Source of the DNA: a virus
Taxonomy: Duplodnaviria > Caudoviricetes
DNA: 31,549 nt
IMG/VR virus record: IMGVR_UViG_3300027581_000027
Location: 1-31,549 of that record
Direction: 5' to 3' (one strand)
Both the position numbers and the translations under genes were made by a program. Below the pieces are notes generated by a model. That model saw only the letters and a list, made by a program, of their open reading frames with translations, ran no database searches and was not told the DNA's origin. The number at the start of each line of letters is the position of its first letter. Positions within the stretch are counted from its first letter, which is position 1. Shown in pieces: positions 4,628-31,446 of this stretch.

Positions 4628-5139
4628 TGAAATTCAGGCTACAAGGCAGCGTGACGATACCGAAGCGGCCATCCACTGTGGGAGGGCTGATAAGCTGGGC
4701 GCGTGGCGTCAATCGAACATTGCAGGAGCTGCGCGACAGGAAGATTGTTGGAATAATCGCAAAGGGAGCATCTAGCGTGACACCTTACCCATTTCAAGTA
4801 AGTGCTACTCCTGATTTGCTGAAATCGGCTCCAGGTTTGCTTGGCAGCGTCAGTATAGCATCTCAAGAAAAGGAAAACCCCGCAGATGGTAATCACTATC
4901 TGCTCGCAAAAGTCATCATCAACTCCACAACTGGAGCAATTACCAGCTCAACCGTCGAGTGGGTTACTACCATTCCAAGCGATACAACCACAAATTACCA
5001 CCGGACGATTGCTAAGGTTAAGATTTTAGATGGAGCAGTGAGCCTCGACCCGGCTGAAACTGCGCAATATACTTACGGACCGATATCAGTAGTGGTCGGC
5101 GGTGGGTTTAATTCAGTCTGGGCAGTCAGGTTATTATGA
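4627..5139 (+). CDS. Minor tail protein
   Basis: 170 aa, coupled overlaps, tail module. Confidence 0.5.
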   Translation: MKFRLQGSVTIPKRPSTVGGLISWARGVNRTLQELRDRKIVGIIAKGASSVTPYPFQVSATPDLLKSAPGLLGSVSIASQEKENPADGNHYLLAKVIINSTTGAITSSTVEWVTTIPSDTTTNYHRTIAKVKILDGAVSLDPAETAQYTYGPISVVVGGGFNSVWAVRLL

Positions 5140-5909
5140 GTTTACTACCAAGTGTTTACGTTAATAATTTTGCGTCAGTAAAGGCTGCGAAAAAGTCTTT
5201 TGTGGATGATTATGTAAACAACCATCCGCACAGATTGTCATCCATCCGACTTTCTGGTTCGTATAACACAGAGTTTGACGGGCGAGAGGTAGCAGGAACA
5301 GCACTGACAGCATATAAACTCAATGAAGATGTAGATTATGCCACATTGTCTGCGTGGACAAGAGTGTTTGGCGAATTACCAGTCATTGACACTATCGGGC
5401 AGACAGGAGTAGCAGGTGGAGCAGAAGGTCTGAACGAATATGAATTTTATGTTGCCCAAGATCTTTATTATTTTTGGAGATTTTATCTTGTAGTGAGCGA
5501 TTTTCCCGAGCCAGTTAAAGTTGGAGAACTCATGACAACTTTTTATGAAAGAGACTCAGTAGAATCTGAATGGGTTGAAACAAGTATCGAAACAGAAGAT
5601 ATTTTTGAAAATGGATATCCAGCCGTAATTACAACTTCCCCATTTTTCAATGGACTCGGAGGACATCCAGTTTCTGGTGGAAAAGGTGCCGATAATGATG
5701 AAAACTCTGCGTGCTTGTTTTTCATATTCACTGGCTCAGGTTCTCCTTTTTCTTTGGCTTCCGGCATTTACAGACTGCCATGGCAAGATCCTTGGGCTGA
5801 TGAATCATCTGTATATACAGATGCCATGACTGATTGGATTGCAGAAAACAATGATTTTGATGGTGGCGGCTGGACAGGATCGGCAGCCGTGACGCTGGAA
5901 TTCTCTTGA
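5136..5909 (+). CDS. Acidic minor tail/structural protein
   Basis: 257 aa, Asp/Glu/aromatic-rich, AT-richer DNA. Confidence 0.5.
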   Translation: MSLLPSVYVNNFASVKAAKKSFVDDYVNNHPHRLSSIRLSGSYNTEFDGREVAGTALTAYKLNEDVDYATLSAWTRVFGELPVIDTIGQTGVAGGAEGLNEYEFYVAQDLYYFWRFYLVVSDFPEPVKVGELMTTFYERDSVESEWVETSIETEDIFENGYPAVITTSPFFNGLGGHPVSGGKGADNDENSACLFFIFTGSGSPFSLASGIYRLPWQDPWADESSVYTDAMTDWIAENNDFDGGGWTGSAAVTLEFS

Positions 5910-5915
5910 TCGAGT

Positions 5916-5949
5916 TTGACTTTCGCCACCGACCGGAAAAACCTCACTC
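5916..5949 (+). promoter_or_regulatory. Putative late leaderless promoter, copy 2
   Basis: TTGACT(5916-5921)-TTCGCCA..17 bp-AAACCT(5939-5944)-5 bp-ATG 5950. Confidence 0.65.
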
Positions 5950-6813
5950 ATGACTCTTTCCGGCACAGAAGTTCGTTACGGCATGATTGCGACAGCCGAC
6001 CCCGGCGCGGTCAATGTTTCTGGTTCTCAAACAATCGGGACAGCCCTTGCATCTCTCATTTACACTAACGCGCCGACCGTAGCCTATTCGATGGCGATGA
6101 TCATTCAGCCTAGCGGCGTGCTTACCCTGAACACGTCCACCGGCGCAGTCACCGGCACGGCAGCAGGAACCGCCCAGGTCGAGACTGCCACGATTGTAGC
6201 AGCTGCTGGTGCAACCACGGCAGGCGACTTGAACGTGACCGTGACATCGGCACTCGTGACCGGCTCGCCATTGCTTATTCCGGTCGCACTACTTTTGACG
6301 GACAACACCGCCAGCCTAGTCGCTACTAAGGTCAGGGCAGCCCTGAACGCCACCGCCGCGATTACCGCGCATTACACCGTAGGCGGCTCTGGTGCGACCT
6401 ACTCGCTGACGACTAGCGCCATCAACCACGCAGCAAACGATTCCACGCTCAACATGGCACACGCCAACGGAACGTGCGTGGGGATTACTACCGCGGCAAC
6501 CTCGGCTAACACAACCGCAGGAGTCGGCACCACCCGCGCTTACAAATTTAACGGCACGGCATGGAACGCGACCGACAACGAAGGAATCGCACTGCCGACC
6601 ATGACGAAGCTGCATTCGATGCTACTCCGCTCTGCATCGACCAGCGGCTCGGTGGCGGTCGGTGAAGGAACCAACCTGTTGACTATTTCTGCCCCATTCG
6701 TCCACCTGCAAGCATCACAATCCGGTGCGCATCCATTTACAGGCGATTCGGTTACCTTTACGGGCGCAACCGCACCAATCACTTTGATTCTTGACATCCA
6801 CGCAGGAGAATAA
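5950..6813 (+). CDS. Thr/Ala-rich virion structural protein
   Basis: 287 aa beta-rich; own promoter motif. Confidence 0.55.
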   Translation: MTLSGTEVRYGMIATADPGAVNVSGSQTIGTALASLIYTNAPTVAYSMAMIIQPSGVLTLNTSTGAVTGTAAGTAQVETATIVAAAGATTAGDLNVTVTSALVTGSPLLIPVALLLTDNTASLVATKVRAALNATAAITAHYTVGGSGATYSLTTSAINHAANDSTLNMAHANGTCVGITTAATSANTTAGVGTTRAYKFNGTAWNATDNEGIALPTMTKLHSMLLRSASTSGSVAVGEGTNLLTISAPFVHLQASQSGAHPFTGDSVTFTGATAPITLILDIHAGE

Positions 6814-6816
6814 GCC

Positions 6817-7125
6817 ATGGCAGACACGATCTATCTGAAGCGCGGGCAAAACTTGGACATCACAGCCGAGTTCATCGACGAGGACGGCGTGCCGATCACG
6901 TTAGATGGCACATACACCGCAACCTCAGCCATGCGGCTCAAAGGCACTTGCGAGCCGATACTTTTGACCTGCACGATTGTAGCTGGAAAAGTCAAAATCG
7001 TCCAAGCGACTGATGATTTAATTGCTGGAGTTTACGACATCGACATCATTGTCAGCAACAACGCCGGTCGTGACATCACGGATGTATTTTACCTAAACCT
7101 TGGAAAGACGATTACCCCACTATGA
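6817..7125 (+). CDS. Small fibre-adaptor/BppU-N-like protein
   Basis: IYLKRGQ...GVYDIDI pattern, just before the fibre gene. Confidence 0.5.
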   Translation: MADTIYLKRGQNLDITAEFIDEDGVPITLDGTYTATSAMRLKGTCEPILLTCTIVAGKVKIVQATDDLIAGVYDIDIIVSNNAGRDITDVFYLNLGKTITPL

Positions 7126-8312
7126 GCAACGTGACACAAACAGGGGCAGTTGGGGAAGTGGTCGTCACTCAGACGGGACAAGAGGCTGCTGTCACAGTTG
7201 TGACCGCACGCGGAGCAACTGGAGCCACCGGAGCCACGGGAGCCACCGGAGCCACCGGAGCCGCTGGCCCGAACTCGATCACAACTTCGACAACATCGAA
7301 CCTGACTGGCTTTATCGCTGCGAACGGAACGGCAGTCAGCGGAGCAACGGCAGGTGCTACCGCAGCCACCGCAAACACGCTCGCCCTGCGGGATGCCACA
7401 GGCGGATCGAACTTCGCAGCCGTCGGTGCATCATCGGTTACATCGAGCGGGGCGATCAACACGACTGGACTTTTCTCCAATATTTCTACAACTGGAAACT
7501 ACTCATATATTTCCACAAGCGGAGAAAACGCGAGTATCGTCACAAACGGAATCACTGCCCACATCTCCACAGGCGGAGCCAGTGCCTACATTCAGTCTCG
7601 CTCAACCTTTAATCTCTACAACGGCACCAACACCACCACGCTCTCCCACGCCCCGACAGCAAACCGAGCGATTGCGTTCCCCGACAAGTCAGGCACGGTC
7701 GCAATGATTGACTCGGAGACGCACACCGGAGCGCACGCGTTCAGCAGCACCACCCGCCCGACATCAGCAGGCACAGGCACGCCAGCGGCAACGAGCTTGA
7801 TTACGCTTGACGATGCGGATGCACGATACCGGCAGCAATCGTCTCCGATTTTTTATGCAGCCCAACAGGATACAGCGCAAGTTGTCACCAACTCCACGTC
7901 ATACGTTGACAGTGCTGCCCTAGTCAATATCCCTGCTGGAACTTATTTTGTCAGATCATCATCCATAGTTCTCAATTCATCAACTACTGGACTTTCAAAA
8001 ACCAGACTAGCATTTTCTGGCACAGGGGCATCAGCAACACGACCATTTACTTTTCGCGCCTTTTCCACTGCAACAGATGCCGCAAGCCTTAGCCCGCAGT
8101 TGTTTTCTCAAACAAGCACTCTTCACGCTTGGAATCGTGAAGAAGTTAATTTTGGAACCAATCGCGGCATGATGATTATCCGCGAATTCATTTTTACCTG
8201 CACAGGCACTGGAAATCTTTCGGCACAGTTTGCAATGAATGTTGCTAGCGGTGTGTCTGACACAGCGACCATGGTTGCGGGTAGCTTTATTATCGCACAA
8301 CGTATCAGCTAA
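7122..8312 (+). CDS. Tail fibre with collagen-like Gly-X-Y segment
   Basis: RGATGATGATGATGATGAAGP; ANRAIAFPDKSGTVA fibre motif; variable C-terminal domain. Confidence 0.75.
   Translation: MSNVTQTGAVGEVVVTQTGQEAAVTVVTARGATGATGATGATGATGAAGPNSITTSTTSNLTGFIAANGTAVSGATAGATAATANTLALRDATGGSNFAAVGASSVTSSGAINTTGLFSNISTTGNYSYISTSGENASIVTNGITAHISTGGASAYIQSRSTFNLYNGTNTTTLSHAPTANRAIAFPDKSGTVAMIDSETHTGAHAFSSTTRPTSAGTGTPAATSLITLDDADARYRQQSSPIFYAAQQDTAQVVTNSTSYVDSAALVNIPAGTYFVRSSSIVLNSSTTGLSKTRLAFSGTGASATRPFTFRAFSTATDAASLSPQLFSQTSTLHAWNREEVNFGTNRGMMIIREFIFTCTGTGNLSAQFAMNVASGVSDTATMVAGSFIIAQRIS
7212..7270 (+). repeat. 9-bp tandem repeat encoding (Gly-Ala-Thr)n
   Basis: GGAGCCACC-type units in tandem. Confidence 0.8.
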
Positions 8313-8315
8313 ATC

Positions 8316-8636
8316 ATGCCCACACCACACACCACCGCCGCTACCATCGCTGAGATCATCTCCAGCGTGCCTAATTTCGTCGTCTCGCAGATGAAACGAG
8401 CTTATGAGCTGGCCAACACGCCAGACCAGCAACAGGCCATCCTCGACGCAATGCCCGATTTCGGCGTGACCCCTACGCAAGCGCTCACGCTTTACGCAAC
8501 GATGCAGACCGCGCTGGCATCCATTGGACTCGCTGGCAACCTGCCTGTTGCTGACCTGACAATCTTCCAGCCGCAGCCGGATGGCAGCGTGCTTTATGTC
8601 GCACCGCCTGAGCCTGAGCCTACACCTGACCTCTAA
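8316..8636 (+). CDS. Putative fibre assembly chaperone
   Basis: 106 aa after the fibre gene, Pro/Glu tail PPEPEPTPDL. Confidence 0.45.
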   Translation: MPTPHTTAATIAEIISSVPNFVVSQMKRAYELANTPDQQQAILDAMPDFGVTPTQALTLYATMQTALASIGLAGNLPVADLTIFQPQPDGSVLYVAPPEPEPTPDL

Positions 8637-8638
8637 CA

Positions 8639-8842
8639 ATGACGATCCCCACAGAATGGATACTAACGGTGCTGATAGCACTTGCCACCGTCATCAGCAC
8701 GTTGGCTGCAATCATCTACCGACAGCTCGCCGCCGAGATCGCCACCCTGCGAACTATTGTCGCGAAACTTCAGGAGGACGTTGACCGCCTGAGCAAAGGA
8801 TGCGGCATCGGCGCCTGCCTCTACAAAAATCGCAATCGATGA
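8639..8842 (+). CDS. Single-TM plus coiled-coil lysis protein (holin/antiholin/i-spanin-like)
   Basis: WILTVLIALATVISTLAAIIY TM then heptads; upstream of endolysin. Confidence 0.55.
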   Translation: MTIPTEWILTVLIALATVISTLAAIIYRQLAAEIATLRTIVAKLQEDVDRLSKGCGIGACLYKNRNR

Positions 8843-9000
8843 AAACCACAATACTCGGACTGCTTGCAGCCGTCGCCGCCACGATTCAAACAACCGTTCA
8901 AGATGGTCACTCGCTAGACGATTGGAAGACCTGGATCTTGCCGGTATCCCTCGCCGTTCTCGGCTATCTCAGCAACGACCAACCTACAACAAAATCATGA
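8839..9000 (+). CDS. Small two-TM holin candidate
   Basis: MKTTILGLLAAV...WILPVSLAVLGYLS; ATGA overlaps at both ends. Confidence 0.6.
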   Translation: MKTTILGLLAAVAATIQTTVQDGHSLDDWKTWILPVSLAVLGYLSNDQPTTKS

Positions 9001-9173
9001 AAATCATACTCGCTCTCGCCACACTTACCCTCGCTTCCTGCGTCAGCACGATCACAACCACGACCTCACCGGACGGAACCGTCACGGTCGTCGAGCAGCG
9101 CGGAATTGACCAGGCATCCGTAGTCGCTGCGACTGAGATCAGCCGCACGATCCGCGTCAACCCGACAAAATGA
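8997..9173 (+). CDS. Small lipoprotein (o-spanin candidate)
   Basis: MKIILALATLTLAS-C signal peptide with lipobox. Confidence 0.6.
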   Translation: MKIILALATLTLASCVSTITTTTSPDGTVTVVEQRGIDQASVVAATEISRTIRVNPTK

Positions 9174-9733
9174 CTCGAGCCGAGATCATCGCTTTACAGA
9201 CGCGCATCGGCACCACGCCGGATGGCATCTGGGGCGATGTATCGACCGCCGCGTGTCAGCGTCACCTGCGGGCGCTCATGCCCACACCTCACCCATGGCC
9301 GACCGGCGACGACACCAGCGTCATTGCACGGTTCGGCGAGCCCGGTGACGAGGATCAGCTCGTCGGTGCTAACGTGCGCGGCCTCGGCATACTCTACGAT
9401 GGTCAGCCGGTGCGCAACATCCGCTGCCATCACCTCGTTGCTGACAGCTTGGTGACGGCGCTTAACGAGATATACGCCAGCCCAGCGCGGTGGATCCTCG
9501 GCGAATACGCGGGATGCTACAACTACCGCAAGATGCGCGGCGGATACCGGCACTCTAAGCACGCTTGGGGCATCGCTGTTGACTTCGCGCCTACCACCAA
9601 CGGCCTGCGCACCCACTGGCCTCGCGCTGCAAGTATGCCTATCGAGGCGATGGAGTCGTTCGCGCGGCAGGGCTGGCTCTCTGCCGGCGCTTTCTGGAGC
9701 CGCGACGCGATGCACTTCGAGACAACCCACTAA
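9170..9733 (+). CDS. Endolysin, M15 family peptidase with N-terminal PG-binding motif
   Basis: LQTRIGTTPDGIWG; R..SKHAWGIAVD and DAMHFE Zn motifs. Confidence 0.85.
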   Translation: MTRAEIIALQTRIGTTPDGIWGDVSTAACQRHLRALMPTPHPWPTGDDTSVIARFGEPGDEDQLVGANVRGLGILYDGQPVRNIRCHHLVADSLVTALNEIYASPARWILGEYAGCYNYRKMRGGYRHSKHAWGIAVDFAPTTNGLRTHWPRAASMPIEAMESFARQGWLSAGAFWSRDAMHFETTH

Positions 9734-9737
9734 AACC

Positions 9738-10046
9738 ATGCCTGTTAACCCTCCCACAGAGATAAACATCGGAGGGCGCACCATATCGATCCGTATCGAC
9801 CCGAAGCTGGAAGCGTGGGGTGAATATCACGGAGACGATGCTGAAATCGTTCTGGCAGCCCGGACGCTTGCCAAGCAATCCAGCCTGCGCGAGACGCTGC
9901 GCCATGAAATGCTGCACGCAGCGCTCGACATCTCCGGACTGTCCTACCTTGAGCGATTCGAGGAAGAAGCGGTCGTGCGGTGCATTGAGAACATCTTTCA
10001 TCCAGCTTGGGAAAAGGTTAGGAAACAACTGACGATTTTGCAATAA
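9738..10046 (+). CDS. Small zincin-like (HEXXH) protein
   Basis: ETLRHEMLHA...EEEAVV. Confidence 0.7.
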   Translation: MPVNPPTEINIGGRTISIRIDPKLEAWGEYHGDDAEIVLAARTLAKQSSLRETLRHEMLHAALDISGLSYLERFEEEAVVRCIENIFHPAWEKVRKQLTILQ

Positions 10047-10058
10047 CCCTCTAAAACT

Positions 10059-10784
10059 ATGGCATGGGAAAAATCAATCTTTCTTGCAGACACCCACGGC
10101 GACCTCGTCTGCCCGGATGCGGTGAAGGTAGTCAAACGGTTCATTGCCGATTGGCAACCAAAGCACCGCATCCACCTCGGTGATGTCTGGGACTTCCGCT
10201 CGCTTCGCAAAGGCGCCTCCCCCGAGGAGCGCATGGAGGGCATCTCCTACGATTACAGCTGCGGCATGGAGCTACTCGACTGGTATCGCCCAAACTTCCT
10301 GACCATGGGCAACCACGACCATCGGCTGTGGCGTGCCGCTACTGAATCGAGCAACGGCATCCTCGCCGACTTGTGCGCTCTCAAAGCGCAGGAGACTGAG
10401 GACGAGCTGCGGAAGATGAAAATCAAGTGGGTGCCGTGGAAAGTGACCGAGAGGCTCAAGATCGGCAAGCTGACGCTCATTCACGGCTTCCTTAGTTCGA
10501 TGCACCCGGCCAAGGCACACCATGAACGATTCGGGAGTGTAATTTTCGGCCACGTCCATTCGCCTAGCGATTACGAGGCCAGGCATATTGACAACGGCAG
10601 CGCACACGCCGTCGGCACGCTTGCGCAGATTGACAAAATGACTTACGCTGACGCTCACCCAGCCAAGCTCGGCTGGCGGCAAGGCTTCGCTTACGGGATG
10701 CACAACACGAAAACAGGAGACTTCAAAATATGGCAGGTAACAAAAAACGGATTGGACTGGATCAGCCCGATGGGCACACTTTAG
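10059..10784 (+). CDS. Calcineurin-like metallophosphoesterase
   Basis: DTH, GDVWD, GNHD, IHG, GHVH motifs. Confidence 0.9.
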   Translation: MAWEKSIFLADTHGDLVCPDAVKVVKRFIADWQPKHRIHLGDVWDFRSLRKGASPEERMEGISYDYSCGMELLDWYRPNFLTMGNHDHRLWRAATESSNGILADLCALKAQETEDELRKMKIKWVPWKVTERLKIGKLTLIHGFLSSMHPAKAHHERFGSVIFGHVHSPSDYEARHIDNGSAHAVGTLAQIDKMTYADAHPAKLGWRQGFAYGMHNTKTGDFKIWQVTKNGLDWISPMGTL

Positions 10785-11431: not shown

Positions 11432-11442
11432 CTACTCACCCC

Positions 11443-11463
11443 GCCGAGGTTCGATCCCTCGGC
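11443..11463 (+). repeat. T-arm-like hairpin, copy 1
   Basis: GCCGAGG-TTCGATC-CCTCGGC. Confidence 0.7.
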
Positions 11464-11689: not shown

Positions 11690-11695
11690 AACACC

Positions 11696-11716
11696 GCCGA
11701 GGTTCGATCCCTCGGT
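11696..11716 (+). repeat. T-arm-like hairpin, copy 2
   Basis: GCCGAGG-TTCGATC-CCTCGGT. Confidence 0.7.
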
Positions 11717-13911: not shown

Positions 13912-14612
13912 ACACCGAACTAATGCCGCTCATACTCGCAGGTGATGGCTACCAATTAACGATCTCCGACGAGGCGATTCAACGCAAAGCCGAGATGCTC
14001 TCGGCGTCATCCACGATCCAGATCGTCGGCGACAATGACGAATCTGCGGTGGCACAGCGACACACCCGCCAGCTCGCTGCCATGCGCATCGAGGTCGAGA
14101 AGAGCCGGAAACTGGTCAAAGAGCCTGTCAATCGCATCGGAAAAATGATCGACCAGGCCGCCTCTGAGTTCCTCGTCGAGATCGCCGCCGAGGAAGGCCG
14201 CATTAAGCAGCTTGTCGGCAAGCACGCCGAGGAGGTGCTACGGATCAAGGCAGAGAAGGAAGCCGCCGAGCGTGCCGCGTTTGAGGCAGCCCGTGCTGCC
14301 CGCGAGGCCGCTGAGGAGGGCGGGATCGCTGCCGTCATCGCTGCCAAGAAGGCCGCTGCCGAGAAGCTGGAGGCATCCGCCGAGGTCGCCACCACTAAGA
14401 TCGCCGAGGGCGTGCGGTTCGCGTGGGACTTCGAGGTGGTGGACTTGCACATGCTCGCTGAAAGAGAGCCAATGCTGGTCAAGATTGAACCACGTCGAGC
14501 TGAGATACTTGCAGAACTCAAGGACATGGAGGAGCACGGCTACAACGTCGAGTCACTTGCCGCAACCTTCGGCATCCGCGCATTCAAAAAACCAATCGTT
14601 TCCAGCCGATGA
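13908..14612 (+). CDS. Coiled-coil phage protein (DUF1351-like)
   Basis: IEVEKSRKLVKEPV helix, Ala/Glu/Lys-rich linker, WDFEVVD C-domain. Confidence 0.55.
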   Translation: MNTELMPLILAGDGYQLTISDEAIQRKAEMLSASSTIQIVGDNDESAVAQRHTRQLAAMRIEVEKSRKLVKEPVNRIGKMIDQAASEFLVEIAAEEGRIKQLVGKHAEEVLRIKAEKEAAERAAFEAARAAREAAEEGGIAAVIAAKKAAAEKLEASAEVATTKIAEGVRFAWDFEVVDLHMLAEREPMLVKIEPRRAEILAELKDMEEHGYNVESLAATFGIRAFKKPIVSSR

Positions 14613-15250
14613 ACACACCCCATTACACATGGGCCGAAAGCCCGATCCACGAACAAATCAGAACCATGAACACTGACACACCTGAGACGGATGCAGCTCT
14701 TTCAACTGCCGAATGCGAAAGTGAGGACGCGGCACATGTGGCTGCGCTGACCGCCGTCACCGAGCAGCTGGACAGCTACAAAGAGCGTTACACTAAACTG
14801 GCTGGCAAATATGCAGTTGAGATACATGAACTCACCGAGCAGCGGGACAGGGCGCTAGAAGATCGTAATAAATACATGAATCTGTATTACGATGAAATTC
14901 ATAGTATTGATCGTCAAGGTATCCGACCGCCCGTCATGAAAACTCACGAATTACAACAAAAGCCTTCGGGCGGTTCGGATAACCGCCTTGTTCGGCTTTC
15001 CGATTCCGTCCGCGCTCTGGACGGCGATCTAGGTAAGCGTGTCCGCGCTCTGGAAATCCAGCTTGAGGCGGCGAAAAACCGCCACTGCTTTTGTCCCGAC
15101 TGCCGAGACAAGGTGCGCGATGAAGAATGCCTTCGCTGTCAAGTCCAGCGACTCACGCGACGACTCCGTAAATATGAGCCGAACGATTTAGCGCAGACAC
15201 CGACGACGGGATCGAGCGCCGATACTCACATCAACCATCAATCAACCTGA
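14609..15250 (+). CDS. Apparent fusion: DTPETDA-type coiled-coil N-part plus cassette-1 ORF (internal start 14936, CxxC protein)
   Basis: ORF crosses attC-like site A; ATG 14936 lies in that site's loop. Confidence 0.55.
   Translation: MNTPHYTWAESPIHEQIRTMNTDTPETDAALSTAECESEDAAHVAALTAVTEQLDSYKERYTKLAGKYAVEIHELTEQRDRALEDRNKYMNLYYDEIHSIDRQGIRPPVMKTHELQQKPSGGSDNRLVRLSDSVRALDGDLGKRVRALEIQLEAAKNRHCFCPDCRDKVRDEECLRCQVQRLTRRLRKYEPNDLAQTPTTGSSADTHINHQST
14906..14996 (-). repeat. attC-like site A
   Basis: Minus strand GCCGAAC-AAGGC-GGTTATCC-GAACCGCCC...GGGCGGTC-GGATACC-TTGAC-G|ATCAAT. Confidence 0.75.
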
Positions 15251-15301
15251 AAACATTGAACTCGGAGCGGTCGTCGGTTGATCTGCCGCGCCTTGTTCGC
15301 C
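15178..15301 (-). repeat. attC-like site B
   Basis: Minus strand GGCGAAC-AAGGC-GCGGCAGA-TCAACCGACGAC...GTCGTCGGTG-TCTGCGC-TAAATC-G|TTCGGC. Confidence 0.8.
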
Positions 15302-15311
15302 TCTTAAAATT

Positions 15312-15587
15312 ATGGACGCACCACAAATGGACCCAGAAAGAACGAAGCAAGTAAAAGAATGGCTGAATGAGCTGCATGGAGCAGTCCAACAGTCATCCGA
15401 AACCTGCCGCCAACTCCGCGACAGGCTCTCGCCTGTTCTCAGGATGGAACCTGCCGAAACATGCGGTAAAGGAGTATGCCCGCAAGCCGACTTAGTGGAA
15501 GTTGCGGCGGCTATTCGAGAAGCCGTTGTAATGATTCAAGGAACGACGGAAAACCACCGCGAAATGATCCGTCTTCTCGAAGTTTGA
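15312..15587 (+). CDS. Cassette 2 ORF, helical hypothetical protein
   Basis: 91 aa between sites B and C. Confidence 0.65.
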   Translation: MDAPQMDPERTKQVKEWLNELHGAVQQSSETCRQLRDRLSPVLRMEPAETCGKGVCPQADLVEVAAAIREAVVMIQGTTENHREMIRLLEV

Positions 15588-15593
15588 AACATC

Positions 15594-15620
15594 GCCGGAG
15601 AGGTTCAATCCCTCTCTGGC
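15594..15620 (+). repeat. T-arm-like hairpin, copy 3
   Basis: GCCGGAGAGG-TTCAATC-CCTCTCTGGC. Confidence 0.65.
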
Positions 15621-15745
15621 TAACGCCACAGCGCAGACACCGCCGGACTCCGGCACGTAAAATCTATGAACCAAGAACCAAACCCCGAGGCGGCGGAAAC
15701 CGTCCAAACTACGAACGTTCCGGCGGTTGCTCCATCCCGCTCGCT
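15618..15745 (-). repeat. Degenerate attC-like site C
   Basis: Plus strand GGCTAAC-GCCACA-GCGCAGACACCGCCGGA...TCCGGCGGTTGCTCCATCCCG; GTT box absent. Confidence 0.55.
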
Positions 15746-15944
15746 GCCGAAATTCACATACGTAAACTGGCACAAGGCCGCGCCGAACTCCTCTCCGAAC
15801 TGCTGGAAGCGATGGTTTAGCATCAGGCGGTATTGGGGCGGGAAGCTGATCTACGTGGAAGTCCGGCACCACTCGTTCCAATTCGACTTCAGGCGGAACT
15901 GGCTCGCGGACTTTCTTGGCGAGAACAAGTCCTCCAATCCCTAA
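15666..15944 (+). CDS. Cassette 3 ORF, Trp/Arg-rich hypothetical protein
   Basis: ATG in loop of site C. Confidence 0.55.
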   Translation: MNQEPNPEAAETVQTTNVPAVAPSRSLPKFTYVNWHKAAPNSSPNCWKRWFSIRRYWGGKLIYVEVRHHSFQFDFRRNWLADFLGENKSSNP

Positions 15945-15957
15945 CCTCGAACGAACT

Positions 15958-16305
15958 ATGAACAACACACCAACACCGAGAAAAGGAGGGCGAATGAAAC
16001 GCAACTGGATAGCTTCTGGCTGGTTGCAGCTCCACGCCTTGTTCTGCTCTTTTAATTTTTGGGAAAAGATGGCGATCATATATGTGTTATTGATACCCCT
16101 CGCATCTCCGAAAAAGTGGTCGCTGATAACGGGTAAATTCCTGAGCCTATGGAAAGAATGTCCATTGGTATTCGGACTCCAGATGGCGGCATTGGTGATT
16201 CTGTCTCATGGACTACTAGCCAGTTATCGGGGACTTCGCGCGGATCGTTCAAATGGCGATACACAATCGGACAACGCCGCTCCGCTACCTCCCAAAACTC
16301 TCTAA
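15958..16305 (+). CDS. Cassette 4 ORF, membrane protein
   Basis: Two hydrophobic segments; reads through attC half-site D (GTTCTGC 16041-16047). Confidence 0.5.
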   Translation: MNNTPTPRKGGRMKRNWIASGWLQLHALFCSFNFWEKMAIIYVLLIPLASPKKWSLITGKFLSLWKECPLVFGLQMAALVILSHGLLASYRGLRADRSNGDTQSDNAAPLPPKTL

Positions 16306-16309
16306 TCAC

Positions 16310-16579
16310 ATGGAAACTTCGACACAAAACGCCCCGCCCGTTGACCTCGACCGACTTGTTCGACGTGGGCAGTTTTGCCCGAAGCAGCAGGAAATAAACC
16401 GACTACGCCGTGTGCTGCATGACATCGCAGACAGCCGCCCCGATCAACACATGGACATTGAGAAGACCCCAGAACTAACGGAGTGGATTTGCGAGACATG
16501 CCGCAAGGCCAGCGTGGGGGCATATCCTTATTCGTCGAACGCCGATGTGGAGTCACCGATGAGAAAGGAACGCCAATGA
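16310..16579 (+). CDS. Cassette 5 ORF, hypothetical protein (CETC)
   Basis: METST...VDLDRLVRR; bounded by GTTCGAC 16358-64 and GTCGAAC 16534-40. Confidence 0.6.
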   Translation: METSTQNAPPVDLDRLVRRGQFCPKQQEINRLRRVLHDIADSRPDQHMDIEKTPELTEWICETCRKASVGAYPYSSNADVESPMRKERQ

Positions 16580-16702
16580 ATACACCTTGTAGAACCGAAG
16601 ATGATTGTCCGACACCAACATGGTGCCGAGGCAAGGACAGATGCCCGAAACGGGACGCCAAAGAACCGCGCAAGATCGGTTGGCTGGCACGCCTTGTTCT
16701 CG
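16534..16702 (-). repeat. attC-like site F
   Basis: Minus strand CGAGAAC-AAGGC-GTGCCAGC-CAACCGAT...ATCGGTG-ACTCCAC-ATCGGC-G|TTCGAC. Confidence 0.65.
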
Positions 16703-16866
16703 GAAGCTGGCATTCAGTGTGGGCGTGTTACCACCTCGAAAGAGTAGGCGACCCCGCGACCTTCACTTGCTCCGATGGATCATGCCACCACGACAACCGC
16801 TACAAACACCACCGCCGCACCCTCAACAAGTTATCCGAGAACGCCTCTGTGGAGGCACGCCAATAA
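16576..16866 (+). CDS. Cassette 6 ORF, Cys/His-rich hypothetical protein
   Basis: ATG in loop of site F; ends ...SENASVEARQ across half-site 16836-16861. Confidence 0.55.
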   Translation: MNTPCRTEDDCPTPTWCRGKDRCPKRDAKEPRKIGWLARLVLGSWHSVWACYHLERVGDPATFTCSDGSCHHDNRYKHHRRTLNKLSENASVEARQ

Positions 16867-16871
16867 CGACT

Positions 16872-17156
16872 ATGAGAGAATCCACCATCGAACAGGCAGT
16901 CTGCGCTTATGCAAAAAGGAGAGGCTGCCTTACACTAAAACTATCTGGGCAAAACCAGAAAGGCCAGCCCGACCGGATGTTCCTCTACCATGGCCGCGTG
17001 CTGTTCGTCGAGTTCAAGGCACCCGGCAAGCGGCCTACCGCGCTGCAAGCTCGATGGCTCGACCGCCTGACCGAGCACACGTTCCATGCAACATCCTGCA
17101 ACGAGATCGAGGCGGGCAAGCGACTGATCGACCTTATTACCATGACCTACCAATGA
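16872..17156 (+). CDS. VRR-NUC domain nuclease
   Basis: MRESTIE..GQPDR..FVEFKAPGKRPTALQ. Confidence 0.9.
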   Translation: MRESTIEQAVCAYAKRRGCLTLKLSGQNQKGQPDRMFLYHGRVLFVEFKAPGKRPTALQARWLDRLTEHTFHATSCNEIEAGKRLIDLITMTYQ

Positions 17157-29796: not shown

Positions 29797-31446
29797 ATGA
29801 AAAAGAAATTGAGCTTGTGCGTCATCACCGGCAACGCCGAGAACTACATAACCCGCTTCCTCGATCATTTCGAGCCAGTAGCTGACGAGATCATCGTGGT
29901 GCGAGCGTGCGGCAACCAAGAGCCAGACGGCACGCTGGACATCGCCAAAGCTCGCGGCTGCGTCATTGGCGAGTATTTCAACACCCACGACTGGCCGCAC
30001 GTCGATGACTTCGGTGCAGCCCGCAACGCAGCCCTCGACCTTGCGACCGGCGACTGGCTGATGTGGGCGGACACCGACGATGTGATCACGCAGGATTCCA
30101 TTTCACAGATCCGCCGGTTACTTGATGACATCGACGTGAAGGATGTTGACGGGGTGCTTATGCGCTACGTTGTGCCAGAAGATAACATAATCAACTGGCG
30201 GGAGCGGATCTGGCGCAAAGGATCAGCAAGGTGGGAGAATCCGGTGCATGAATGCCTCAAATTTAATGATGGAACGAAACACATGCAATTCGATGGCGCC
30301 GAGATTGTCCATGCCAGCGAAAAACGCAGCGCATCTAGGGATGAGCGCAACCTCCGCATTCTCGAATCCATACCTAAAGAGGAGCGAACAATCAGCCAAC
30401 GATTCCACACGTTCCAATCTCTGATTGCGCTGGATCGTAATGCCGAAGCCATTACCGAAGCCTTGGAATTTGTGCAAACAGATGGAGTCGGCAAAAACGA
30501 GCTTTATGAGGCGTATTTTCAATTAGCTAGGCTAACTGGTGACGAAGCCGTAAAAATGCAGATGCTCACGCAAGCACTCGTGACCGATCCGAGCCGCCGC
30601 GAAGCATACGGCGAGCTGGGGCTTGCTAATACTATTTGTGACCCGTTAGCAGCACTAGGCTGGACTGAGGCCATGCTGGGGCTTTCTATGCCTCACAATC
30701 CGCCTTGGAACCTTCGTCGGCCATATTACGGCGCACTGGGTATCGGGCTGCGAGGAATGGCTCTCAGGGTCAACGAAAGGCGTGCAGAGGCAGATGCGCT
30801 AGAAACTAACCACTTCATTCGTGCGGGAGCTAAAATCAGCCTCCTGCACGCAACCAGAGGCCGACCAGCGCAAGCGTGGCGTTGTCGAATGAACTGGCTC
30901 CGCAGCGCAGCCAATCCTGACGCGGTGGAGCATATCTTTGCCATAGACGAGGATGATTACGCCAGCTTCGCCCTGGCAAACGCTCGCTGCGTAATCAATC
31001 CCGGTGCCGGCCCAGTGGCAGCCTGGAACGAGGCGGCAAAGTTTTCCAAGGGCGAGATCCTCATCCAACTCAGTGACGACTGGCAGCCGCCGATGCACTG
31101 GGACAAACTCATACTGGCTGCGATTGGCGACACGTCGAAGCCTGCGGTGCTTGCAGTCAGCGATGGCCATCGCGAGGACAACCTGCTCTGCATGGCGATC
31201 CTGACCCGCGCCCGCTATAAGGCGCAGGGATACCTCTTCGAACCTGCGTTTTTCAGCATGTTCAGCGACAATCACTTTACCGACCGCGCCTACGCAGACG
31301 GCGTGGTGATCGAGGCGAAGGAGATCGTGATCGAACACCTTCACCCTGCGTTCGGAAAAGCCGAGATGGATGAGACATACGCCCGCAGCAACGCGCCGGC
31401 TAACTACGAGGCAGGGCTGGCGACCTACGAAAAACTCAAGCCATGA
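29797..31446 (+). CDS. Glycosyltransferase: GT2 + TPR + second GT-A domain
   Basis: LSLCVITGN, DFGAARNAAL..WADTDD, PVHE; DPSRREAY TPR; SLLHATRGRP..IQLSDDW. Confidence 0.85.
   Translation: MKKKLSLCVITGNAENYITRFLDHFEPVADEIIVVRACGNQEPDGTLDIAKARGCVIGEYFNTHDWPHVDDFGAARNAALDLATGDWLMWADTDDVITQDSISQIRRLLDDIDVKDVDGVLMRYVVPEDNIINWRERIWRKGSARWENPVHECLKFNDGTKHMQFDGAEIVHASEKRSASRDERNLRILESIPKEERTISQRFHTFQSLIALDRNAEAITEALEFVQTDGVGKNELYEAYFQLARLTGDEAVKMQMLTQALVTDPSRREAYGELGLANTICDPLAALGWTEAMLGLSMPHNPPWNLRRPYYGALGIGLRGMALRVNERRAEADALETNHFIRAGAKISLLHATRGRPAQAWRCRMNWLRSAANPDAVEHIFAIDEDDYASFALANARCVINPGAGPVAAWNEAAKFSKGEILIQLSDDWQPPMHWDKLILAAIGDTSKPAVLAVSDGHREDNLLCMAILTRARYKAQGYLFEPAFFSMFSDNHFTDRAYADGVVIEAKEIVIEHLHPAFGKAEMDETYARSNAPANYEAGLATYEKLKP

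Follow-up and report, generated by a model that had tools for sequence, protein, structure and literature searches.

How does a tailed phage come to carry a row of small genes separated by integron recombination sites, with the genes turned against the usual layout and no integrase beside them? The question is raised by a viral sequence of 31,549 nt (IMG/VR record IMGVR_UViG_3300027581_000027, positions 1–31,549; hereafter the window), in which a sequence-only reading had described an array of integron-like cassettes at 14906–16866. The window derives from a tailed phage whose recognizable genes, as identified with Pfam and PHROGs, all lie on the + strand and encode a tape measure protein, an endolysin, a VRR-NUC nuclease, an SNF2 helicase, a primase, a terminase, a portal, a protease and a capsid protein. 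On balance, we favor the explanation that the locus holds six small genes in a partly decayed, inverted integron-type array, the units of which are cut and joined at G|TT by an integrase acting in trans, most likely one of the kind encoded by related phages.

The recombination (attC) sites were assessed with a covariance model (CM) trained on 20 bacterial chromosomal sites only (14 from the Akkermansiaceae-level family and 6 from other Verrucomicrobiota, chosen by our own structural detector), with no phage sites included. When the whole window was searched with filters off, eight matches with E ≤ 5 were returned (the E-values being rough): site B (43.6 bits), site A (41.4) and site F (20.1), followed by the partial sites E (13.8) and D (13.7). 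These five lie on the minus strand; the other three matches, with E-values of 1.8–2.9, fall outside the array. Three relatives with an empty locus gave no match at E ≤ 1. The model thus returned as whole sites exactly those three that had been proposed from the letters, A at 14906–14996, B at 15178–15301 and F at 16534–16702. The anatomy looked for comprised an R'' box ending in AAC, a 5-nt spacer, an 8-nt L'' box with one extra base, a 7-nt L' box, a 5–6-nt spacer and an R' box (G|TT); B is complete, F has one L mismatch, A is complete save for G|AT at its R' box, and C, D, E and G are partial. The motif CTTGTTC has five + strand copies in the 31.5-kb window, each of them within 14987–16693.

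The boxes at the two ends of a gene unit are complementary to each other, as had been noticed earlier at 14990/15177 (8/8), 15295/15618 (unit B, 6/7), 16358/16533 (8/8) and 16696/16834 (9/9), while the two ends of site F itself were confirmed to match at only 4/7 positions. This pairing by cassette rather than by site recurs in related arrays. We scored 51 non-redundant neighboring-site pairs from 21 related loci, out of a set of 104 viral and metagenome loci (L109–L111 and the duplicate L063 excluded) that was found by window-related queries, is therefore not a random phage sample, and includes metagenome contigs not individually verified as viral. For the four variable R-box bases, a cassette-wise match was found in 34 of the 51 pairs and a within-site match in 5, against a permutation expectation of 3.3 on average and 11 at most for the cassette-wise match (5000 permutations). 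The longest open reading frame (ORF) was inverted relative to the sites in 37 pairs, canonical in 3 and unassigned in 11, and 23 of the 37 inverted ORFs start inside their own site. The loop was A/C-rich on the gene strand in all 63 viral sites, and the loops resemble the leaders of other genes in the window phage. An ATG inside the site was also considered as a discriminator between phage and host sites; it proved weak (53/75 vs 22/45) and was not used as support. Related arrays often carry DNA methyltransferases.

Differences of whole units between relatives point to movement of cassettes. Two records, L110 and L111, which may go back to a single data set assembled two times, are identical to the window across 14514–16845 and show 4 differences in 2347 bases up to 16860; at the cut of site G they hold extra DNA made up of two cassettes, each with a whole attC site, and the match to the window resumes from 16839. 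The switch point in L110 falls within seven shared bases (16839–16845) that include the cut. Pieces fitting this long form were found in three of four public sequencing runs, and the joint expected from it in all four. In L112 (98%) and in one contig from run X7 (record 26; 14912–15184, with unlike letters on both sides), cassette A is bounded by the cuts at either end. At the left end of this cassette, all six relatives shown keep AAC and differ just left of it; at the right end, six of seven loci change no more than 4 bases past AAC and the seventh, L116, ends at AAC. For cassette F, the right-hand neighbor at the cut differs in L110, L143 and L144, being an attI site in L144, and identity of L142 to the window starts at the AAC box of site F, the neighbors in L142 belonging to a similar family. 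In both L112 and L144 the sequence changes right at AA|C with no likeness beyond. The breakpoints at AA|C anticipated by the sequence-only reading were accordingly found in L110, L112, L142 and L144, and together with the CM matches these whole-unit differences bear out cassettes of integron type, a conclusion that we hold with high confidence. Whole-unit movement was seen for A (L112, X7), F (L142, L144) and the two extra units of L110 only; for B, C, D and E it was unseen in the relatives compared.

All six array ORFs lie on the + strand, antisense to the attC top strand. In the usual layout, which is a common state and not a strict rule, the ORF lies on the attC top strand and is read from the Pc promoter at attI. 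In the + strand frame of cassette A, 50 of 80 differences fall at third codon positions, as do 27 of 48 in cassette F, and the minus-strand frames of A and F each contain a stop. A site, whole or broken, contains the start of five of the six ORFs, and four of the ORFs (A, D, E and F) terminate in the site that follows. Read on the + strand, the left arm of the sites bears the cut AAC and the right arm the 8-nt L box; on a recombining strand the extra-helical base lies on the arm opposite the cut AAC, according to PMC5027507. By this extra-base rule, and in agreement with the observed cuts, the + strand would be the recombining strand, folding into the hairpin that the integrase cuts, like known attC bottom strands, and doubling as the coding strand. 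As the A/C-rich loops resemble phage gene leaders, they may serve as translation starts: each cassette would bring along, within its attC loop, an A/C-rich leader and a start codon, while its stop would often come from the next site. Having its own start and leader, a cassette would be read from the phage's + strand replication-gene transcript wherever it landed.

Which enzyme moves the cassettes is less directly visible. As had been claimed from the outset, the window encodes no integrase: none of its 49 ORFs matched an integrase family in Pfam, a tblastn search of the window with an integron integrase gave no match at E ≤ 0.01, and PHROGs returned only a weak excisionase-family match on the small terminase. 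An integron integrase is found in the phage record L013, in which the helicase, primase and VRR-NUC proteins are 83%, 67% and 63% identical to those of the window. Directly before its VRR-NUC gene, L013 has an integrase gene (intI), an attI site and an inverted array with eight attC sites by CM. The L013 integrase is a tyrosine recombinase scoring 281 bits with TIGR02249 (cut-off 265), and its closest solved structure is 2a3v, with an alignment covering residues 10–313, which we take to include the IntI-specific insertion. The R box of the L013 attI matches the first cassette, and intI, attI and attC stand in their classical relation, with the ORFs turned toward intI.

Integrases of the L013 type were found in nine viral loci. 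A quick tree was built from 63 proteins of 76 loci (12 short or broken sequences and one duplicate having been removed), in which eight viral and three integrases from contigs of metagenome-assembled genomes (MAGs) grouped together (approximate likelihood-ratio support, SH-aLRT, 96), apart from 24 family-level host integrases. Among 301 Akkermansiaceae-family genomes, a close relative of the phage-type integrases was found in the seed genome only. The integrase of L086, a Verrucomicrobiaceae MAG contig encoding a primase, a terminase and a portal downstream, is sister to the phage integrase group. Phage-type attI sites, with or without intI, flank related arrays, and cassette F itself adjoins an L013-type attI in L144/L145, the complete genome of which lacks intI. 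In 50,697 GenBank phage records, nine integrase matches were found, all less than 42% identical, and the array had no match. Given cassettes, we consider a phage-type enzyme their probable main source of recombination activity. More broadly, the balance tilts slightly towards phages of Verrucomicrobiota running an integron system of their own, with an IntI lineage, their own attI and a shared pool of backwards cassettes, the attC loops of which would act as translation starts for the genes they carry; from this pool integrase-less phages would gain and lose cassettes during co-infection. On the favored explanation, the window copy is a decayed derivative without intI and attI, in which A, B and F alone could still act as whole sites.

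Some further loci with integrases or attI-like sites are recorded here as side observations. In L011 (at 5634), L047 (at 3744) and L048 (at 5344), arrays at this hotspot terminate in an attI-like site, after which a short gene stands in the place of intI. In the GenBank phage record L225, which is Virus Rctr41k (KX853513), the stretch 4680–10097 holds an IntI-like gene annotated as xerD and, downstream of it, four or five attC-like sites, on the strand of which our detector and the CM disagree. The Gammaproteobacteria MAG contig L096 shows a phage-like attI-intI layout at 6442–8948, its integrase falling outside the phage group.

Several observations weigh against the explanation favored here, and they are set out below with the rivals that they serve. 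The strongest rival, already part of the sequence-only reading, accepts the same cassettes and mechanism and assigns the main enzyme to the host, a chromosomal IntI acting in trans; we regard it as possible, though doubtful. It draws on the 122 of 301 Akkermansiaceae-family genomes that carry an IntI above the cut-off, and on the attC sites of these bacteria. In our host sample (20 regions from 15 genomes with 151 sites, 88 of which come from two genomes), 146 of the 151 sites open with AAC-AAG as the phage sites do, the length range is common to host and phage sites, the arm of site B matches host sites, and host attI ends are similar to phage attI ends. Moreover, intI was absent from all eight other array-bearing phage records searched, four of them at least 90% complete, as well as from the partial records of L011 and L048, and L013 has no match to the window terminase. 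IntI1 has been shown to recombine attC sites from virulent phages (PMC9892861). On the other side, the host is itself only inferred, from the common attC style and the MAG placement of the phage-type enzymes; the window helicase had no match in the 301 genomes, nor was a prophage of the window phage found there; and no window cassette protein matched the host loci examined, which are a small sample. The phage integrases form a separate group, and phage-type attI sites flank the arrays, one of them beside cassette F. Of the original proposal, the integron-type cassettes with cuts at AA|C, the antisense ORFs and the lack of an integrase in cis stand; the host as the source of the enzyme is not established, in view of the phage IntI group, L013 and the attI next to cassette F.

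The next rival, which we find improbable, takes the hairpins as relics of integrons whose only present role is to start translation, with the genes being swapped through homologous or short-homology recombination at arms that resemble each other. Its basis is that breaks affect four of the seven sites (C, D, E and G), leaving A, B and F whole, and that the right outer boundary of the array is a start-codon (ATG) fusion and not the product of an integrase. Aside from this rival, there are weaker points in the sites themselves: the detector called B alone among the array sites, and folding gave mixed support, with A at z −3.2 (z −4.5 for an intact copy of A in L121), B pairing its boxes correctly at z −1.4 (20 of 200 shuffles equally good), C having no attC fold, and F taking a lowest-energy fold in array context that differs from the full attC stem. 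For the relics speaks further that in L114, L129 and L143 the partner switches at the R'' box or inside the loop and not at the cut; the same attC families thus recur with different genes. The L110 difference is flanked by two arms alike in 18 of 22 bases, and a short-homology deletion could therefore also explain it. The relatives add to this: via the window helicase, 51 related viral loci were found, and in the 34 with both flanks of the hotspot before the VRR-NUC gene, 7 hotspots are empty, 23 hold inserts without attC and 4 hold attC sites or arms. Against the relics speak the changes right at AA|C in L112 and L144 with nothing alike beyond, the cassette-wise box complementarity kept in 34 of 51 pairs, and the complete integrons of inverted layout in phages. 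Homologous or short-homology exchange is the probable origin of the broken junctions but not of the array. The suggestion that all six genes can be shuffled was overstated: A, B and F alone are whole sites, and at its right outer end the array is bounded by an ATG fusion. Ordinary recombination or slippage is the probable cause of the breaks in C, D, E and G, as a result of which most units here could no longer leave singly.

Chance matches or an assembly artefact are very improbable: the short form, with its direct F-to-G junction, was indeed seen only in L109, apparently the window's own record, but the CM matches reach E-values of about 1e-6, 14514–16845 is identical in L110/L111, and at least 93% of the array's sampled words are present in four public runs, one of them possibly the window's source.

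Read from left to right, the integron-type array starts within a + strand gene, the front part of which (14609–14911) belongs to a common phage gene family that fills the hotspot in attC-less relatives. This front part reads in frame into the ORF of cassette A, giving a fused ORF at 14609–15250, and the left outer boundary is formed by a G|AT junction within a gene that belongs to no cassette. Site A (minus strand) has its R'' box at 14996–14990, the spacer AAGGC, an 8-nt L'' at 14984–14977 and a 7-nt L' at 14924–14918; its R' box, cut between 14912 and 14911, reads G|AT where relatives have the canonical G|TT. This is likely a secondary-site (GWT) junction, or else a point change from G|TT; the sequence of the empty G|AT target gave no match. 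Cassette A (14912–15183, + strand) has an ORF at 14936–15250 that encodes 104 aa with CxxC pairs, starting inside site A and stopping inside site B. Site B (minus strand), with a detector score of 14, is cut between 15184 and 15183, and its family is also found in L055, L129, L131 and L133. Cassette B (15184–15623, + strand) has an ORF at 15312–15587 (91 aa) starting just past the R'' box; no relatives of the cassette were found among 16 candidates in viral_contigs, and diverged pieces of it are present in runs X5–X7.

The broken site C (15618–15732, minus strand) retains R', L' and the loop of the site-B family, its L'' and R'' having been replaced. It is 89% identical to L059 across 114 nt and the likeness stops at 15732, so that the partial arm first placed at about 15618–15745 stands up to 15732 as attC family homology and not beyond. 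ORF C (15666–15944, + strand, 92 aa) starts in the loop of site C and ends in a junction sequence common to these phages. This stop-leader-start junction (15927–15985) recurs many times in related phages, mostly without attC, and probably provides the homology through which small genes are exchanged. The broken site D (15982–16047, minus strand) consists of the R''/L'' half only (E 0.22 with the CM); left of 15982, contigs in three of the four runs carry other sequence. A search for the original end of cassette D gave 24 matches, whose only listed likeness to the window was an unrelated 25-nt stretch. ORF D (15958–16305, + strand, 115 aa) has a second in-frame ATG at 15994 within site D and stops within site E.

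In the broken site E (16268–16364, minus strand) the loop, L'' and R'' are present and the R'/L' arm is absent, though it is present in the family elsewhere, with whole copies in L110, L114, L121 and L129; a contig of run X3 has a loose end at 16268. ORF E (16310–16579, + strand, 89 aa) has its start codon within site E and its stop codon within site F. Site F (minus strand) is whole but long (169 nt) and is cut between 16540 and 16539, and cassette F (16540–16841, + strand) has an ORF at 16576–16866 (96 aa) starting inside site F. The array closes with half-site G (16835–16874, minus strand), the R' and L' boxes of an attC site cut between 16842 and 16841, with an internal ATG that is the start of the VRR-NUC gene; up to this ATG it is 97% identical to an attC arm of L143. 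The VRR-NUC gene (16872–17156, + strand) forms the right flank of the hotspot. In empty hotspots the stop of the upstream gene overlaps the VRR-NUC start, and the intI gene of L013 ends at that same start.

No cassette protein was named by Pfam and PHROGs, which gave only a sub-threshold DarP match on the fused ORF; PADLOC, run on nine proteins, gave a single weak JetA match (E 0.002) on ORF B, and Atlas gave nothing above 0.85 for the body of cassette A. With no convincing match, no function is claimed for the cassettes. A promoter and terminator scan yielded chance-level signals only, and Rfam gave three chance-level matches in the window, none of them in the array.

The best array-containing public runs are freshwater metagenomes. 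No terminal repeat was found in the window, which may therefore be slightly incomplete. Its head module is closed by a glycosyltransferase gene (29797–31446). Two copies of a short hairpin lie behind small early-region ORFs (11442–11463 and 11695–11716); the loop presumably resembles a tRNA T-arm, and ARAGORN predicted no tRNA at either copy. Among the close relatives, sites of the same attC style lie at other hotspots, between VRR-NUC and helicase in L009 (1230–4324) and downstream of the helicase in L040 (1367–1709). L048 (1580–5705) has several cassettes with opposite-strand genes and long non-coding stretches; these units are possibly regulatory cassettes with their own promoters.

Integrons are viewed as bacterial devices, in which features of the attC site cause inserted genes to face the Pc promoter. 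In the present array the attC sites carry their genes reversed, and the hairpin itself contains the start codons, an arrangement suited to a phage transcript that runs in one direction. If this is true, part of the mosaicism of phages among small genes of the early and replication regions would be site-specific and not only due to homologous or illegitimate exchange. The pieces needed for testing exist: a phage IntI with its attI, host IntIs working with attC sites of the same style, and two natural phages that differ by two cassettes. The case also bears on how cassettes originate and on whether phage and host pools mix, no common cassette protein having been found in the small host sample.

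By definition the array is a group of clustered attC sites without an integron integrase (CALIN), a term for two or more attC sites that fall within about 3 kb and have no integron integrase close by: A, B and F lie within 1.8 kb, and neither intI nor attI, as a complete integron would have, stands beside the array. Phage CALINs have already been published. In Qi et al. 2023 (PMC9892861), 17 were counted in 10,705 phage genomes, and five of six tested phage sites recombined with attI1 by IntI1. Our literature search, with most subscription journals outside its coverage, turned up neither an account of phage cassettes that are uniformly inverted nor one of an IntI lineage in phages. The CALINs of TJE1, PH101 and P12002L (PMC9892861) resemble the window in having an attC cluster without an integrase. 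The sites of TJE1, which we checked, are on the same strand as the ORFs, whereas the window ORFs are antisense and start inside the sites; the window also differs from the CALINs described there in that whole-cassette differences are visible between near-identical phages. The complete integrons reported in the same paper are class 1 or host-like and belong to temperate phages, while the L013-type integrases group apart from those of hosts.

Insertion by integron integrases into secondary sites (attG) follows the consensus GWT (bioRxiv 10.1101/2022.09.11.507474). Site A of the window, with its R' box G|AT at the outer array end inside a non-cassette gene, is similar to such an insertion; it differs from it in that its empty target is unmatched and a point change from G|TT is another possibility.

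In the Treponema-type 'reverse integrons', the ORFs keep their normal polarity relative to attC and intI is turned. L013 shares with them an intI of the same orientation as the cassette genes, and differs in that the ORFs are turned while intI, attI and attC keep the classical arrangement. The sedentary chromosomal integrons at the Akkermansiaceae level are like the phage arrays in the AAC-AAG opening, a site length of about 80–126 nt, the cassette-wise box match (116 of 127 host pairs) and similar attI ends. They differ in that their ORFs are mainly canonical (85 of 127 pairs, with 12 inverted and 30 unassigned) and their loops near neutral in A/C composition on average, whereas the phage ORFs are reversed and the loops A/C-rich. 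On the top strand, some host attC loops (L171 and L175) combine an ATG with a stretch rich in A/C, which is the mirror image of the phage layout.

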